Shown: piece after piece, positions 1 to 4,605 of the stretch
How the letters are laid out: each line of letters starts with the position of its first letter
Numbering within the stretch: position 1 is the stretch's first letter
Translations under genes and position numbers: made by a program
Notes under the pieces: model-generated
Told to the model about the DNA's origin: nothing
The model's input: the letters and a program-made list of their open reading frames with translations, nothing else
Databases searched by the model: none
Virus record (IMG/VR): IMGVR_UViG_2579778778_000001
Direction: 5' to 3' (one strand)
DNA from: a virus
Lineage: Duplodnaviria; Heunggongvirae; Uroviricota; Caudoviricetes
DNA length: 4,605 nucleotides

Positions 1-1997
1 CGGCAAAGAAATCCGAAACTGCAGCGGCATCATCGAAGAACGCGGCGAAAACCTCAGAAACGAATGCAGCTAACAGCGCACAGGCGGCAGCGACCTCACA
101 GACTGCATCGGCAAACTCCGCGACAGCAGCCAAAAAATCAGAAACCAACGCGAAAAACAGTGAGACAGCCGCAAAGACGAGCGAAACCAACGCAAAGTCC
201 AGCCAGACGGCAGCGAAAACCAGCGAAACGAATGCTAAAGCCAGTGAAACTGCGGCAAAAAACAGCCAGGTTGCAGCAGCCCAAAGCGAGAGCGCGGCAG
301 CCGGTTCTGCGACTTCAGCAGCTGGATCAGCAACTGCTGCGGCTAACAGCCAGAAAGCTGCGAAGACGAGTGAAACTAACGCAAAGTCCAGCCAGACGGC
401 AGCGAAGACCAGCGAAACGAATGCCAAAGCCAGTGAAACTGCGGCGAAAAGCAGTCAGGATGCAGCGGCTCAAAGCGAGAGTGCCGCAGCCAGTTCTGCA
501 AGCGCGGCGGCTGCTTCTGCCACTGCATCAGCTAACAGTCAAAAAGCAGCAAAAACCAGTGAAACCAACGCAAAGGTGAGCGAAACAGCGGCTGCGAACT
601 CAGCGAAAGCATCGGCAGCAAGCCAGACGGCAGCTAAAGCAAGCGAAGATGCAGCCAGAGAGTACGCAAGCCAGGCTGCGGAGCCGTATAAATATGTCTT
701 ACAGCCGCTGCCTGATGTGTGGATACCATTTAACGATTCGCTGGATATGATTACGGGCTTTTCGCCGTCATATAAAAAAATTGTTATTGGTGACGATGAA
801 ATAACGATGCCTGGCGACAAGATTGTTAAGTTTAAACGTGCATCGAAAGCAACCTATATTAACAAATCTGGTGTGCTGACAGAGGCTGCCATTGACGAGC
901 CACGATTTGAACGTGATGGCCTGCTTATTGAGGGGCAAAGAACAAACTACATGCTCAATTCGGAAAGCCCTGCCAGTTGGGGGCGATCGTCAAATATGGA
1001 TGTGCCCGAAACAGGGACGGATAATTTTGGTTTTACCTATGGAAAGTTTGTCTGCAACGATTCTCTGATTGGGCAAACCTCAGCCATTAATATGGCATCA
1101 ATTGCTGCAACAAAGTCAGTTGATGTCTCAGGCGATAATAAACACGTGACAACCTCATGTCGTTTTAAAACAGAACTGCAGGTAAGGTTGCGTATCCGGT
1201 TTGATAAATATGACGGTAGCGCAACAACTTTTCTTGGTGATGCGTATATTGATACACAAACGCTTGAAATTAATATGACAGGCGGTGCTGCCTCAAGGAT
1301 TACAGCGAGAGTCAGAAAGGACGAAGCTACCGGATGGATTTTTGCAGAGGCAACAATTCAGGCAATTGATGGGGAGTTAAAAATAGGCTCTCAGATACAG
1401 TATTCTCCTAAGCAGAGCGGGGCAACCGTATCTGGTGACTATATTTATCTGGCCACCCCACAAGTAGAAGATGGGCCTTGTGTATCATCTTTTATTATAT
1501 CAGGAGCGACGGCGGCGACCCGCGCAAGCGATATAGTTACAGTTCCAATTAAGAATAATCTTTATAATCTTCCTTTTACGGTTCTTTGTGAGGTACATAA
1601 GAACTGGTATAAAACGCCAAATGCAGCGCCACGTGTTTTTGATACCGGCGGTCATCAAACCGGAGCGGCTATTATTCTTGGCTTCGGTCGTTCAACAGAT
1701 TACGACGGATTTCCTTATTGCGATATTGGAGGAGCTAACAGACGGGTAAACGAAAACGCATCGCTTGAAAAAATGGTTATGGGGATGCGTGTAAAGTCAG
1801 AGCAGTCTACGTGCTCAGTAAGTAACGGGCATATATCCAGCGAAACAAAAACCACATGGTCCTGTATTCAGAACACCGCAATTATCCGTATTGGAGGCCA
1901 GACTACAGCCGGGTTACGTCATTTATTTGGTCATGTCAGGAATTTCAGAATATGGCACAAGGCATTGACTGATGCTCAGGTGGGGGAGTCAATCTAA
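1..1997 (+). CDS. stf: Side tail fibre protein, lambda Stf-like, 5'-partial (first full codon at nt 3; stop TAA 1995-1997). Repeat-rich Ala/Ser/Thr/Lys shaft, then a C-terminal putative receptor-binding domain with a LamG/ConA-lectin-like terminal motif.
   Basis: The frame of track ORF 576..1997 is open without stops back to nt 3. Translation of 3-660 gives repeats such as AKTSETNAKSSQTAAKTSETNAKASETAAK, which match from memory the AKTSETNA-type repeats of the lambda Stf N-terminal shaft. The track start at 576 is an internal GTG, not the true start. The C-terminus ends ...GLRHLFGHVRNFRIWHKALTDAQVGESI, resembling the terminal strand motif of LamG/ConA-like jelly-roll domains. It is followed by a coupled downstream gene (TAATG overlap). 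Confidence 0.85.
   Translation, partial: AKKSETAAASSKNAAKTSETNAANSAQAAATSQTASANSATAAKKSETNAKNSETAAKTSETNAKSSQTAAKTSETNAKASETAAKNSQVAAAQSESAAAGSATSAAGSATAAANSQKAAKTSETNAKSSQTAAKTSETNAKASETAAKSSQDAAAQSESAAASSASAAAASATASANSQKAAKTSETNAKVSETAAANSAKASAASQTAAKASEDAAREYASQAAEPYKYVLQPLPDVWIPFNDSLDMITGFSPSYKKIVIGDDEITMPGDKIVKFKRASKATYINKSGVLTEAAIDEPRFERDGLLIEGQRTNYMLNSESPASWGRSSNMDVPETGTDNFGFTYGKFVCNDSLIGQTSAINMASIAATKSVDVSGDNKHVTTSCRFKTELQVRLRIRFDKYDGSATTFLGDAYIDTQTLEINMTGGAASRITARVRKDEATGWIFAEATIQAIDGELKIGSQIQYSPKQSGATVSGDYIYLATPQVEDGPCVSSFIISGATAATRASDIVTVPIKNNLYNLPFTVLCEVHKNWYKTPNAAPRVFDTGGHQTGAAIILGFGRSTDYDGFPYCDIGGANRRVNENASLEKMVMGMRVKSEQSTCSVSNGHISSETKTTWSCIQNTAIIRIGGQTTAGLRHLFGHVRNFRIWHKALTDAQVGESI
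171..548 (+). repeat. In-frame tandem duplication of a 189-bp (63-codon) unit inside the stf shaft (copy 1 171-359, copy 2 360-548), with degenerate partial copies on both sides and a ~14-15 codon sub-periodicity.
   Basis: Direct comparison: gcaaagacgagcgaaaccaacgcaaagtccagccagacggcagcg at 171 versus gcgaagacgagtgaaactaacgcaaagtccagccagacggcagcg at 360 (offset exactly 189). The first ~100 nt of each copy are near-identical and the remainder more diverged. Protein units are AKTSETNAKSSQTAAKTSETNAKASETAAKNSQVAAAQSESAAAGSATSAAGSATAAANSQKA and AKTSETNAKSSQTAAKTSETNAKASETAAKSSQDAAAQSESAAASSASAAAASATASANSQKA. Confidence 0.85.
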
Positions 1998-2278
1998 TGA
2001 AAGATTTAACACTCAAATTTGAAGACAGGGCCGACTTTTCGGCCTTTATGGAGAGTATTGGCTATTATGATGACGAGTCGATGCAGGATGATATTCTTAT
2101 CGACGTGATAGGTAACGTGTACAAAGAAACCGGAGAACTGACTGAAGATGGCGAACCGGTATGTGTTAAGGAAGACGGATATTTTGTAAACGTGCGCATC
2201 ATTAATGATTCGCAAATATCGTCATTATTCGATGAATACGTGGTTGCTGTTGAGCATCAACTTCGTGGCTGGATGTGA
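1997..2278 (+). CDS. Hypothetical small acidic protein (93 aa), function unknown; candidate fibre chaperone or adaptor.
   Basis: ATG at 1997 overlaps the stf stop (TAATG). GGGGGAG Shine-Dalgarno at 1983-1989, 7 nt upstream. Uninterrupted ORF to TGA 2276-2278. Asp/Glu-rich, no hydrophobic segment. Low GC like the flanking genes. I do not recognise a family. Confidence 0.7.
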   Translation: MKDLTLKFEDRADFSAFMESIGYYDDESMQDDILIDVIGNVYKETGELTEDGEPVCVKEDGYFVNVRIINDSQISSLFDEYVVAVEHQLRGWM

Positions 2279-2287
2279 GGAAGAAAA

Positions 2288-3328
2288 ATGGCTACATCGA
2301 CAGTAATTCCTGATGACATCAAAACGCTAAAATCCGACGTTAGCAAATTAAAAAACGATCAAGGAAGCTACGCAACAAAATCTTATGTAGACAATAAAAC
2401 AACATGGAATGGTTATTGCAATGTAATCTATGATCAAAAAACATTGCCAACAACTGGAACTATATTCAGCGGTAAGCTGCATTTGTCAAATAAGACTGGT
2501 GAAACGGAAAACGCTTATAGTGACATATATACCAGAAAAAATATTGATGGTACTAAAGATACAATGACGAGGATCGTCACACATAACGGGACAAAAGGTA
2601 TCTTTTGGGACTTTAGTGATCTTTACGGAGGAACTTTAATTTTTCCAGGCAGTGATGGTTACCTTAAGATGGGGAACTGTCTCATGTCGTATGGTGTGCG
2701 GGGAAGTAACGCGCTTATTAAGTTTGATAATACAGACTCATTGCAGATCAAATATGCTAATCACGGGTCGACCATGACACTAAACACGCAAGGTACGGCG
2801 TATTCTGGTGTGTCGACGTTATTATGGGGAAATTCCAGCCGTCCTGTTGTTTATGAAGTCGGTGTTGATGGTGGCGCTTATATGTTCTATGCGCAGAAAA
2901 ATACCGATAACACCTATATGTTAAGCGTTAATGGTGCATGTCATGCCACCGCATTTAACCAGCATTCCGACCGGGATCTGAAAGACAACATTCAGGTGAT
3001 CGATAATGCAACCGACCGCATCCGTAAAATGAACGGCTATACATACACGCTTAAAGAAAACGGTATGCCCTATGCTGGTGTCATTGCACAGGAAGCTCTG
3101 GAAGCAATCCCAGAAGTTGTAGGTTCCGCAATGAAATATCAGGACGGTGCGAGCGGATCGGAAGGTGAAGAAGGTGAACGTTATTACACAGTAGATTATT
3201 CTGGTGTTACTGGCTTGCTTGTTCAGGTAGCCAGAGAGTCAGACGACAGAATAACAGCACTGGAAGAAGAAAACGCAGAATTAAGACAAAGATTATCTGT
3301 AATTGAGGCGGCGCTTGCGTCTAAATAA
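2288..3328 (+). CDS. Short tail fibre or tailspike-like protein (346 aa) with a C-terminal peptidase S74-type intramolecular chaperone auto-processing domain.
   Basis: GAGGAAG Shine-Dalgarno at 2277-2283, then ATG 2288. The C-terminal ~120 aa (from nt ~2966) carry the S74/endosialidase-chaperone hallmarks: Ser227 and Lys232 in NQH-SDRDLKDNI (Ser/Lys spaced i and i+5, as in the endosialidase CTD), then GYTYTLKENG, GVIAQEALEAIPEVV, YYTVDYSGVTGLLVQVARE and a terminal coiled-coil-like ITALEEENAELRQRLSVIEAALASK. The N-terminal ~226 aa are Gly/Thr/Asn/Tyr/Ser-rich and beta-like, typical of fibre tips. Confidence 0.85.
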   Translation: MATSTVIPDDIKTLKSDVSKLKNDQGSYATKSYVDNKTTWNGYCNVIYDQKTLPTTGTIFSGKLHLSNKTGETENAYSDIYTRKNIDGTKDTMTRIVTHNGTKGIFWDFSDLYGGTLIFPGSDGYLKMGNCLMSYGVRGSNALIKFDNTDSLQIKYANHGSTMTLNTQGTAYSGVSTLLWGNSSRPVVYEVGVDGGAYMFYAQKNTDNTYMLSVNGACHATAFNQHSDRDLKDNIQVIDNATDRIRKMNGYTYTLKENGMPYAGVIAQEALEAIPEVVGSAMKYQDGASGSEGEEGERYYTVDYSGVTGLLVQVARESDDRITALEEENAELRQRLSVIEAALASK

Positions 3329-3331
3329 TAT
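3303..3331 (+). promoter_or_regulatory. Candidate sigma70-like promoter inside the 3' end of the fibre gene: TTGAGG (3303-3308), 17-bp spacer, TAATAT (3326-3331).
   Basis: Pattern match only. The -35 is 4/6 and the -10 is 4/6 to consensus with ideal 17-bp spacing. A start near 3338-3340 would fall inside the 5' arm of the downstream hairpin. Confidence 0.2.
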
Positions 3332-3334
3332 TAA

Positions 3335-3357
3335 GGGGCCGAGCGCCCCGTTTTATT
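3335..3357 (+). terminator. Rho-independent terminator candidate: GGGGC (3335-3339), loop CGAGC, GCCCC (3345-3349), then G and TTTTATT (3351-3357).
   Basis: A perfect 5-bp all-GC stem followed immediately by a T-rich tract, starting 7 nt after the stop of the 2288..3328 CDS. The stem is short, so strength is uncertain. Confidence 0.55.
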
Positions 3358-3370
3358 GGGTAGGATGAAA

Positions 3371-3664
3371 ATGGATATAACACCTTTCCTTCATGCGCTT
3401 TGTGCTGTGGCTGCGCAGCTACTGATTGGTCTTTTTACCGGGAACTGGGCTTACGGGGCGATAGCCGGTTGTACGTTCTTCATTGCGCGTGAACACACCC
3501 AGGCAGAATATCGCTGGATCGAAATGTTCGGGCATGGCAAGCGAATGAATATGCCGTGGTGGGGCGGTTTTGATACACGTGCATGGGATGTGGCAAGCCT
3601 GATGGATTTTGCTGTGCCGGTGGTGGCGTGTCTGCTGGTCTGGCTGTTGGTTAATCGTGGGTGA
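3371..3664 (+). CDS. Small predicted inner-membrane protein (~98 aa from ATG 3371; alternative ATG 3365; track TTG 3356), two hydrophobic segments, function unknown.
   Basis: GGTAGGA Shine-Dalgarno-like at 3359-3365, 5 nt before ATG 3371. Hydrophobic stretches ALCAVAAQLLIGLFTGNWAYGAIAGCTFFIA and VASLMDFAVPVVACLLVWLLV flank a Trp/Gly-rich loop (MPWWGGFDTRAWDV). No lipobox or cleavable signal peptide evident. GC is visibly higher (~53% in a sampled line) than genes 2-3. Stop TGA 3662-3664. Confidence 0.65.
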   Translation: MDITPFLHALCAVAAQLLIGLFTGNWAYGAIAGCTFFIAREHTQAEYRWIEMFGHGKRMNMPWWGGFDTRAWDVASLMDFAVPVVACLLVWLLVNRG

Positions 3665-3674
3665 AAAAAGGTGA

Positions 3675-3803
3675 GCTGTATATGCAACGGAGGAAGAAAC
3701 CCCGTTGCTGGAAGCCTGGAAAAAGTATCGGATGCTGCTGAACCGTGTTGATACATCAACTGCACCTGATATTGAGTGGCCTACGAACCCTGTCAGGGAG
3801 TAA
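3675..3803 (+). pseudogene. tfa: 3' remnant (~41 codons) of a tail fibre assembly gene (lambda Tfa family); no start codon and no N-terminal part.
   Basis: The frame open from 3675 to TAA 3801-3803 translates to [42 protein letters not shown]. From memory this closely matches the C-terminus of lambda Tfa and E. coli prophage Tfa proteins (...[30 protein letters not shown]...). An in-frame TGA lies immediately upstream at 3672-3674, only 8 nt after the stop of the membrane protein gene. Confidence 0.65.
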
Positions 3804-3811
3804 TCATTGGG

Positions 3812-3881
3812 ATTATGCCGCAGCACGTCTTAAGCAAGACCATTATGCCGCAGAAACGTTGTATGCAATAACGTTCTGCGG
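3812..3881. repeat. Intergenic repeat cluster: 12-bp direct repeat ATTATGCCGCAG at 3812-3823 and 3842-3853, the second forming an imperfect inverted repeat GCCGCAGAAACGTT (3847-3860) / AACGTTCTGCGG (3870-3881) around a 9-nt spacer.
   Basis: Read directly from the sequence. The arms are complementary apart from a 1-nt bulge. No flanking T-tract on either strand, so not a classical terminator. Confidence 0.5.
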
Positions 3882-3888
3882 TTGGCTG

Positions 3889-3908
3889 ATGCACTTTCGA
3901 GAGTGCAT
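3889..3908. promoter_or_regulatory. Near-perfect 20-bp palindrome ATGCACTTTCGAGAGTGCAT (18/20 symmetric); possible protein-binding site or hairpin.
   Basis: Reverse complement is ATGCACTCTCGAAAGTGCAT, so two mismatches. It lies in the 380-bp non-coding gap between the tfa remnant and the convergent permease gene. Confidence 0.35.
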
Positions 3909-4045
3909 GTATTGAATTATTTCCAGCTATTATCGATTTTACGTATTTTTTGCATGAGAGAATTTGTACCTCCTCCCAACAACGACCTTCCATGACTTTC
4001 CGGACTTCTGTGGGCCAGCGGACGATGCTGCCCTCGGATGTTGTG

Positions 4046-4605
4046 CTAATTGGGTGATGACAAATCCTGTGTATGGGTGTTTCCCTTTGTGCGTGCGTTG
4101 ATGCTGGTAACGGTGAACGTCATGATGAACACAACCGCGAATAAGACGACAATCGTCGGAGCTGGTGCACTGTCGATAAAAAAGGACAACCAGACACCAG
4201 TCATTGACACTATTACCGATATGCCAATCGCCAGTAGGAGCGCAATATGAAAGCGTTGTGTCAGGAGTACCGCAATGGCGCCAGGCGCAATGAGCAGAGA
4301 AATGGAGAGAATGATACCTACCGCTTTCAGCGTCGCCACAATGGTCAGAGAGACCATGCACAGCAGCCCATAATGCAGACATCTCGTATGCAAACCGCTT
4401 ACCTGCGCCTGTTGATAATCAAAGCTGAACAGCAAAAAATCCCGCCATTTTACGCTAATAACAAGTGTAACCAGCCCGGCAATAATCACCGTCTGGATTA
4501 TATCGCCGATGGTTACCCCGAGCATGTCGCCGAAAAGAATATGGTCAAGATGTACGTCTGGTTTGACTGCAATATACAAGATCAGACCTGCGGCAAACAT
4601 GCCAG
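4046..4605 (-). CDS. ABC-3 family (ZnuB/MntB/SitD-type) metal ABC transporter permease, C-terminal ~185 aa; the 5' end of the gene lies beyond the window. Possibly a sitD-like Mn/Fe permease.
   Basis: Minus-strand ORF open to the window edge, stop TAG (revcomp of 4046-4048). The translation is multi-TM and aligns by eye with the C-terminal half of E. coli ZnuB as I recall it, including the LFGD-L-V motif (here DHILFGDMLGVTIGD) and the following helices. Assignment within the family is from context, not sequence. Confidence 0.8.
   Translation of the reverse strand, partial: GMFAAGLILYIAVKPDVHLDHILFGDMLGVTIGDIIQTVIIAGLVTLVISVKWRDFLLFSFDYQQAQVSGLHTRCLHYGLLCMVSLTIVATLKAVGIILSISLLIAPGAIAVLLTQRFHIALLLAIGISVIVSMTGVWLSFFIDSAPAPTIVVLFAVVFIMTFTVTSINARTKGNTHTQDLSSPN

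Follow-up and report, generated by a model that had tools for sequence, protein, structure and literature searches.

A sitD permease gene as probable cargo at the tail-fiber end of a Rac-like prophage in Escherichia coli

Introduction

At the right-hand end of the 4605-nucleotide stretch of DNA analyzed here (hereafter, the window), a reading frame on the minus strand converges on the tail-fiber genes of a prophage. Does this gene travel with the phage as cargo, or does it mark the bacterial chromosome beside it? An earlier note on the same DNA called the gene a metal-uptake ABC-3 permease and left both readings standing: sitD of a prophage-associated sit operon, or a core permease of the host.

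SitABCD is well known to promote the fitness and virulence of Shigella, avian pathogenic E. coli (APEC), and extraintestinal pathogenic E. coli (ExPEC). The transporter imports Mn2+ and Fe2+ and is repressed by Mn-bound MntR (reviewed by Porcheron et al., PMC3852070). In Shigella, experiments support Mn/Fe import by Sit and an advantage in intracellular growth, a strain without both Sit and MntH is more sensitive to H2O2, and the system aids colonization in vivo by both Shigella and APEC (PMC3852070). For APEC strain chi7122, Mn and Fe transport by Sit was measured by Sabri et al. 2006, as cited in PMC3852070. Carriage of sitABCD at the tail end of lambdoid prophages has already been published for prophage 042p3 of enteroaggregative E. 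coli (EAEC) 042, for Perceval of strain LF82, and for the Shigella sit island. Chaudhuri et al. (PMC2808357) described sitABCD as cargo of 042p3.

Results

Organization of the window

The features of the window are as follows.

1-3328, plus strand: prophage tail-fiber module (Pfam, NCBIfam, and RefSeq annotation)
up to 1997, plus strand: C-terminal part of the side tail fiber (RefSeq annotation)
1997-2278, plus strand: open reading frame of 93 amino acids
2288-3328, plus strand: tail-fiber protein of 346 amino acids with an S74 intramolecular chaperone domain (Pfam Peptidase_S74, E=6e-14; NCBIfam spike-fiber domain)
3335-3349: terminator after the tail-fiber gene (terminator scan)
3371-3664, plus strand: gene for a 97-amino-acid hydrophobic protein; in phage 21, Perceval, 83972, and ST131, too, the sit cassette follows it directly
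3684-3803, plus strand: tfa remnant, last 39 codons only (translation)
3824-3853 (placement ambiguous within 3812-3853): 30-bp insert found in the window and not in otherwise identical genomes
3847-3882, plus strand: stable hairpin CCGCAGAAACGTT-GTATGCAAT-AACGTTCTGCGG without a T-run
3864-3999: 136-bp phage segment, here called segment X, between the hairpin and the cassette; its homologue lies across the cassette in phage-21-type contexts
4026-4605, minus strand: window part of a sit cassette of ~3.65 kb (sitDCBA plus promoter) with ends identical in phage 21, Perceval, and the prophages of B2 strains
4046-4605, minus strand: sitD from codon 101 to codon 285 and the TAG stop, the 3' two-thirds of the gene (open reading frame list, Pfam ABC-3, 100% identity to annotated sitD)

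Positions 1-2393 of the tail-fiber module match phages HannyBb and Tritos at 99% identity, and it is this module that locates sitD at the tail end of a lambdoid prophage. The 97-amino-acid protein that follows has no match in Pfam or NCBIfam; in phage 21, where the corresponding DNA (L003 10574-10954) is 94.8% identical to window 3362-3740, it is annotated as a 'putative membrane protein, 2 TMDs'. The tfa remnant shares 90% identity with the 3' end of tfaR from K-12 and 96% with tfaD of DLP12; its RefSeq label reads 'tail fiber assembly protein, incomplete, missing N-terminus'. Across this remnant Rfam returned a sub-threshold, partial match to IS009 alone (62.8 bits against a cutoff of 117). 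We take this match as homology to a tfa-remnant region, perhaps one like tfaD of K-12 DLP12, and reject an RNA gene at the site.

The permease reading frame as sitD

The reading frame ends with a TAG codon at 4046-4048, contains 0 internal stops, and remains open through the last base, 4605. It holds 185 complete codons, which correspond to residues 101-285 of the 285-amino-acid SitD; the fragment of 184 amino acids described earlier is the same frame counted from an internal ATG. Pfam ABC-3 (PF00950; gathering cutoff, 20.1 bits) matches the fragment with 141.3 bits (E=5.3e-41), aligned from position 93 to position 257 of its 258 positions, which bears out the earlier call of a minus-strand ABC-3 permease. 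A Kyte-Doolittle scan, which is crude and no topology prediction, shows several hydrophobic stretches in the fragment, each 19 residues or longer and peaking at 2.0-2.5. These stretches are long enough to cross the membrane and suggest that SitD is a polytopic membrane protein.

DNA 100% identical to the fragment occurs in E. coli 13TMH22 and many other strains. There it is annotated as 'sitD: iron/manganese ABC transporter permease subunit SitD' in RefSeq and lies beside a partial 'tail fiber assembly protein'. At the amino acid level, SitD is 98% identical to a chromosomal copy of S. flexneri, 96.8% identical to that of phage 21, and 94.0% identical to that of a ColV-type plasmid; the S. flexneri and plasmid proteins stand as proxies for the strains actually assayed in the literature. 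Outside E. coli and Shigella, close relatives are found in Phytobacter (92% of amino acids; 88.5% of nucleotides over the coding region only, with no homology in the flanks) and in Enterobacter, Buttiauxella, and Pluralibacter (~80% of amino acids); the values for Salmonella and Klebsiella are 72% and 69%.

A check of SitD against ZnuB, proposed with the earlier reading, came out in favor of SitD. Full-length SitD scores 73.1 bits against the ZnuB equivalog NF007089, the fragment 58.1 bits, and SitC 78 bits, all against a cutoff of 284, and ZnuB was rejected as the identity of the gene. The solved structure closest to SitD is that of the manganese permease PsaC (PDB 7KYO/7KYP; E ~1e-39 over residues 5-266), far ahead of the ZnuB structure 9OKO (E=2e-14). 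PsaBC of S. pneumoniae is built from a single permease type. Sit differs in using two different permease genes, whose products, SitC and SitD, are 36% identical to each other. SitB passes the NCBIfam equivalog for Mn/Fe ABC ATPases (NF011630) with 589.6 bits against a cutoff of 393, and SitA matches models of both Mn/Fe and Zn binding proteins. SitC and SitD reach no NCBIfam equivalog cutoff, and NCBIfam holds no model specific to either; the permease call therefore leans on the Pfam match, the surrounding operon, and the near-identity with copies that already carry the name.

A Rac-like prophage in ttcA

Our reference locus, L001 from E. coli 13TMH22, is identical to the window apart from the 30-bp indel: window 1-3823 corresponds to L001 20001-23823, and window 3842-4605 to L001 23812-24575. 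For what lies beyond the window, sitCBA and attR, we rely on inference from genomes with a 100% match to the window outside this indel, not on the window's own genome.

In these genomes the next genes after sitD are sitC, sitB, and sitA, which supplies the ATPase and periplasmic binding protein that the earlier note had proposed to look for. The operon is complete in L001, and none of sitC, sitB, and sitA is marked as a pseudogene. The gene order at the locus is recE...trkG-lom-stf-hyp-tail fiber-hyp-tfa'-sitDCBA-(phage arm-att core-ttcC)-uspF-ompN-nifJ. The prophage is of the Rac type, with recE, racC, kilR, sieB, ydaT, lysis genes, trkG, pseudogenized structural genes, lom, and the side tail fiber; recT, ralR, xisR, intR, and an intact ttcA lie at its opposite end. 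It shares with Rac of K-12 the integration site ttcA/ttcC, the att core, the attR-proximal arm (99%), and the early region (recET, kilR, sieB, ydaT, trkG). The right end of K-12 Rac differs, reading stfR-tfaR-pinR-ynaE-ynaM with no sit operon.

Between sitA and uspF, L001 has 586 bp. They contain the attR-proximal arm of K-12 (GGCAAAAATGGGGCAAA...), the 26-bp att core TTGTTCAGGTTGTATTGTTCTTTCTT that is common to attL and attR in K-12, a fragment of ttcC, and the uspF flank. Over L001 27674-28500, identity to the corresponding arm, ttcC, and uspF of K-12 is 99.2%. The Rac-specific phage arm accounts for ~150 bp, to which the att core is added; the cassette ends ~24 bp from this conserved arm and ~170 bp from the core. 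Because arm, core, and uspF flank all lie beyond sitA, the sit operon is inside the prophage ends. The earlier note's suggestion that the window captures a phage-cargo junction holds for the junction between tail fiber and cargo, which lies within the prophage; that between phage and chromosome is ~3.8 kb further on.

A query running from the 5' end of sitA to uspF sorted 5426 complete E. coli genomes into three classes. The whole sitA-attR-uspF junction is present in 495 of them. Genomes with Rac but without sit, such as K-12 and BL21, match from the phage arm onward only, and prophage-free genomes match from the att core onward only and have ttcA beside uspF. Such an empty site was viewed directly in strain 602354 (dbpA-ttcA-uspF-ompN, no sit). 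In prophage-free strains ttcA abuts uspF and sit is lacking, which favors cargo; a comparison with such strains had been proposed in the earlier note. The carrier can dispense with sit: Rac of K-12 and BL21 is without it, and K-12 has pinR-ynaE-ynaM instead. These observations support the conclusion that a defective lambdoid, Rac-like prophage integrated in ttcA carries sitDCBA as cargo (a 'moron') in the genomes that are identical to the window. The prophage has no head genes and lacks most tail genes, so that on its own it can no longer package or spread sit.

Specialized transduction, which would have given the locus an origin like that of lambda bio phages, was rejected, since sit is placed to the phage side of both arm and core and does not occupy the interval from core to int.

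The cassette in phages, plasmids, and other genomes

Among the 5426 complete E. coli genomes, sitD is present in 2343, in 1646 chromosomal and 1009 plasmid places, and is absent from 57%, K-12 included. A junction of the phage-21 type was found in 739. In the phage collection, sitD occurs in five viable phages, namely the classic lambdoid phage 21, Perceval, ev017, PhiR57_1, and PhiR63_2, and in all five sitDCBA follows the side tail fiber and precedes attP/int. For phage 21 and Perceval (OL657228, OV696612) the order is J-(lom)-side tail fiber-92-amino-acid open reading frame-97-amino-acid membrane protein-sitDCBA (opposite strand)-small open reading frames-icd fragment/attP-int, and B2 strains 83972 and ST131 have the same type of layout at icd.

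The likeness of our locus to phage 21 and Perceval is close. The cassette is 97.9% identical in nucleotides (L001 23996-27650 against L003 10950-14604), agrees with theirs in position and orientation, and has the same MntR and Fur boxes; sit is convergent with the side tail fiber, an open reading frame of ~93 amino acids, and the 97-amino-acid membrane-protein gene, as here. The prophages differ in that phage 21 and Perceval are complete and reside at icd, whereas ours is of the Rac type, at ttcA, and without head genes. Moreover, our locus has an additional 346-amino-acid tail-fiber gene, a longer tfa remnant, and, between the membrane-protein gene and sitD, the hairpin and segment X, the last of which lies on the opposite side of the cassette in the two phages. 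Among the papers searched, none mentions both 'phage 21' and sitABCD.

Other copies sit in other surroundings. In ColV/ColBM plasmids of APEC and ExPEC the operon and its regulatory region are alike, and the ColV-type copy matches L001 23987-27680 (the window from 4017) at 96.5% of nucleotides. It differs in its flanks, which are Tn3 and IS1 remnants with aerobactin genes adjoining, and plasmid copies form a distinct allele group at ~94% of nucleotides. S. flexneri, whose sit island is called 'PAI sit', has segment X, cassette, and attR-proximal Rac arm in a block collinear with ours at 97.6%. The Shigella island occupies several chromosomal sites according to Fisher et al. 2009, as cited in PMC7545054, and in the account given by that review it lies at aspS/yecN, with rearrangements and IS elements. 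In Salmonella Typhimurium, the founding member of the family, SitABCD is linked to SPI-1 and has the same four-gene architecture. It is described as an alkaline Mn2+ transporter under repression by both MntR and Fur (PMC3852070). The closeness is limited: SitD of Salmonella (subsp. diarizonae) is only ~72% identical to ours. To our knowledge, the Salmonella sit copy is not phage-borne.

The junction between tfa and sitD

The permease gene and the tfa remnant converge and are exactly 242 bp apart, as claimed earlier, with the tfa remnant ending at 3803 and the sitD stop codon at 4046-4048. The 30-bp insert in this interval is bounded by a 12-bp direct repeat, ATTATGCCGCAG. The best match to the junction among the 5426 complete genomes covers 97% of it in two pieces, the 30 bp are missing from all genomes listed, and a scan of viral contigs for exact matches to the insert yielded none.

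The hairpin has a folding energy of -21.4 kcal/mol (z -4.3), and the corresponding K-12 copy one of -20.9. This homologue lies in K-12 Rac ~40 bp from the attR-proximal arm, and the alignment contains one compensatory pair, C-G to A-T. The hairpin (3847-3882) was not called by the terminator scan. Indeed, a scan of 3300-4200 for terminators and promoters called the terminator at 3335-3349 only; from sitD to the tfa remnant it found no intrinsic terminator and no promoter. The cassette is thus not cleanly insulated in the manner of textbook morons.

Segment X (3864-3999) corresponds to L003 14599-14730 at 86.8% identity, and 26 bp separate it from the start of the cassette. The homologue of segment X lies across the cassette, upstream of sitA, in phage 21, Perceval, 83972, and ST131. 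Put another way, the cassette lies to the right of segment X in Rac-type prophages and S. flexneri and to its left in phage 21, Perceval, and the prophages of B2 strains. Short microhomologies occur at the joints: GATGCTGC is found in the tfa remnant and again just before the cassette, AAT is shared by the hairpin loop and one cassette end, and TGGCAAA is shared by the cassette end and the Rac arm. Two reading frames in this region were rejected as genes. One is a minus-strand open reading frame of 66 amino acids at 3793-3993, whose frame and start codon are unconserved across the window, phage 21, and PEC1013; the other is a homologue, within segment X, of the 41-amino-acid CPT_21_29 of phage 21, again with frame and start codon not conserved.

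Regulatory region of the operon

An exact MntR-type palindrome, AACATAGCNNNNGCTATGTT (AACATAGC-N4-GCTATGTT), lies at L001 27499-27518, 34-53 bp upstream of sitA, and is present in 5 loci. A predicted Fur box with 2 mismatches in 19 positions lies at L001 27542-27560, 77-95 bp upstream of sitA, where shuffled sequences give an expectation of 0. Regulation by Fur is suggested by this predicted box and by the title that PMC3852070 lists for Ikeda et al. 2005.

Discussion

The permease frame at the end of the window is, with high confidence, sitD, the final gene of sitABCD, carried as cargo by a Rac-like prophage in ttcA. The possibility that the gene is a housekeeping permease of the ZnuB or MntB kind, marking the chromosomal flank, has in its favor that ZnuB is also an ABC-3 protein and gives a weak match. 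This match, 73 bits, is far from the equivalog cutoff of 284, and the gene is missing from 57% of complete genomes, K-12 among them. Empty ttcA/uspF sites without the gene, its position inside the att boundaries, and its presence in phage and plasmid records likewise contradict a core permease, and we regard the alternative, which the earlier note had kept in view, as extremely improbable. An independent genomic island that arrived by a non-phage route and lies beside the prophage, outside its ends, would fit the GC content of the cassette (0.499), which is nearer to that of the chromosome (0.497) than to that of the prophage (0.453), and would fit the plasmid copies, which are flanked by IS remnants and not by phage genes. 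Such an island is nevertheless very unlikely, given the ~150 bp of Rac arm plus att core between sitA and uspF, the matches that begin at the arm in Rac prophages without sit and at the core in empty sites, and the location of the cassette within the packaged genomes of phage 21 and Perceval, between tail fiber and attP. Prophage-associated sit cargo is the reading supported by the attR beyond sitA and by the same cassette in these two phages.

A further alternative concerns history only. It is possible, if somewhat doubtful, that sit entered a Rac prophage already in residence by recombination with another lambdoid phage carrying sit, or with a plasmid, through homologous sequences of the tail-fiber/b region and short microhomologies. 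The tail-fiber ends of lambdoid phages are highly mosaic (HannyBb and Tritos are 99% identical over window 1-2393, and sit was not seen there), the three microhomologies mark the joints, many Rac prophages, including those of K-12 and BL21, lack sit, and the left junction at this site differs in PEC1013. S. flexneri has the block of segment X, cassette, and Rac arm, and the review cited above places the Shigella island at aspS/yecN, not at ttcA. A phage that already carried sit when it integrated at ttcA would explain the data equally well, however. A donor of the phage-21 type is excluded, since the Rac-type cassette is longer at both ends (23987/27680 against 23996/27650) and so was not derived from one.

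The permutation of cassette and segment X is the one slightly unusual point at the locus, and we regard it as normal lambdoid mosaicism. A tandem duplication followed by deletions could convert one arrangement into the other. It is tempting to see in the permutation the trace of an intermediate, circular or duplicated in tandem, by which sit passes from one lambdoid phage to another as one 3.65-kb unit whose ends are fixed, as opposed to ordinary piecemeal mosaicism, but we consider this unlikely.

How cargo in this position would serve the lysogen can be outlined from the literature on near-identical copies, from which we infer transport specificity, regulation, expression in the lysogen, and fitness benefit. 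SitA acts as the periplasmic binding protein, SitB as the ATPase, and SitC and SitD as the two permease halves of an Mn2+/Fe2+ ABC importer. The operon occupies the place of the b region of lambda, past the tail-fiber genes and ~170 bp short of the att core, and is transcribed against the late genes of the phage. The cassette carries its own MntR and Fur boxes, so that the metal sensors of the host may drive sit whether or not the prophage is induced; through this promoter region, with its MntR palindrome and predicted Fur box, the host would switch sit on when Mn or Fe is scarce, independently of phage repression. The lysogen would thereby gain metal uptake and resistance to peroxide, a case of lysogenic conversion. 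Transcription of the sit moron operon of Perceval in an LF82 lysogen was reported by Misson et al. 2023 (PMC9928086).

The finding is correct and ordinary, and it opens no new question; it matters little beyond correct annotation. Our contribution is the placement of the cassette, at the level of single bases, in the Rac/ttcA context, together with the rough proportions of its contexts among 5426 genomes (495 at Rac/ttcA, 739 of the phage-21 type, and ~1000 plasmid places). These data can be used in the typing of sit contexts, and the locus illustrates neatly how a metal importer can bring about lysogenic conversion.

Variation at the junction between the tail-fibre genes and the sit cassette

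The cassette of manganese/iron importer genes (sitDCBA) and its flank occur in two arrangements. A 136-bp segment that lies between a hairpin and the sit cassette in the window (3864-3999) corresponds to positions 14599-14730 of the phage 21 locus (L003). In Rac-type prophages and in S. flexneri, this segment is located downstream of sitD, whereas in phage 21, the LF82 prophage Perceval, and the B2 strains 83972 and ST131 it is found upstream of sitA. The order of cassette and flank is thus permuted between the two groups, with microhomology at the joints. At this junction and in the genes that lead up to it, the window has:

2288-3328: tail-fibre protein of 346 aa whose C-terminus bears an S74 intramolecular-chaperone domain (E=6e-14)
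3371-3664: gene for a 97-aa hydrophobic protein with no family assigned
3847-3882 (29732-29765 in the K-12 Rac locus, L002): stable hairpin without a T-run, close to the right end of Rac-type prophages

The hairpin is conserved between the window and K-12 and differs at one compensatory pair, in which C-G is replaced by A-T. Phage 21 retains only the right arm of the hairpin, fused to the cassette end. Beside the hairpin, window 3812-3853 includes 30 extra bp composed of CACGTCTTAAGCAAGACC and a second copy of ATTATGCCGCAG. This stretch is absent from all complete E. coli genomes among the matches listed that otherwise match at 100%. The 18 bp unique to it are similar to part of the neighbouring hairpin in its K-12 version, namely the left arm plus the loop. 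Three origins are possible for the 30-bp difference: other lineages may have lost the stretch by deletion between 12-bp repeats, recombination may have left a scar, or the assembly may be at fault.

A third version of the tail-fibre/sit junction is found in E. coli PEC1013, where the prophage occupies the same Rac/uspF site. There, two genes (L008 6250-6948), one DinI-like with a frameshift and one coding for a hypothetical protein of 140 aa, separate sitD from the 97-aa membrane-protein gene and take the place of both the tfa remnant and the hairpin. The 97-aa gene, which is 94.8% identical to that of phage 21, directly precedes either the sit cassette or the tfa remnant in all phage and prophage contexts examined; the gene may be an accessory of the tail fibre or, alternatively, small cargo carried in addition to sit.

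The tfa remnant itself is overlapped by a match to the Rfam family IS009 (3662-3760; 62.8 bits, below the gathering score of 117; E=5e-13). The matching stretch is 96% identical to tfaD of the K-12 prophage DLP12. Judged from sequence, the match most likely reflects homology with a tfa-remnant region, and an RNA gene at this position is disfavoured.

Tail-fibre genes and cargo

The Rac-type prophage that carries sit also contains trkG, which encodes a K+ transporter (13TMH22 L001 14882-16339); the gene is at L002 18783-20240 in K-12, whose Rac lacks sit. Ion-transport cargo is therefore found at two separate positions in this element.

The first ~700 bp of the window encode tandem repeats rich in Ala, Ser, and Thr. 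Window 1-2393, comprising the C-terminus of the side tail fibre and the following 93-aa ORF, shares 99% identity with phages HannyBb and Tritos, the latter an LF82 prophage distinct from the sit-carrying Perceval. In contrast, identity to phage 21 across this region is just ~86% and patchy, which indicates that tail-fibre modules were swapped recently and independently of the sit cargo. The 346-aa tail-fibre protein is present in the window and in PEC1013 but missing from phage-21-type sit prophages. Several genomes otherwise identical to the window carry insertion sequences in their tail-fibre genes, belonging to the IS3 family (genome hits H1, H2, and H13) or IS1 (hits H14-H16). These insertions are consistent with phage functions that are still decaying while sit is retained.
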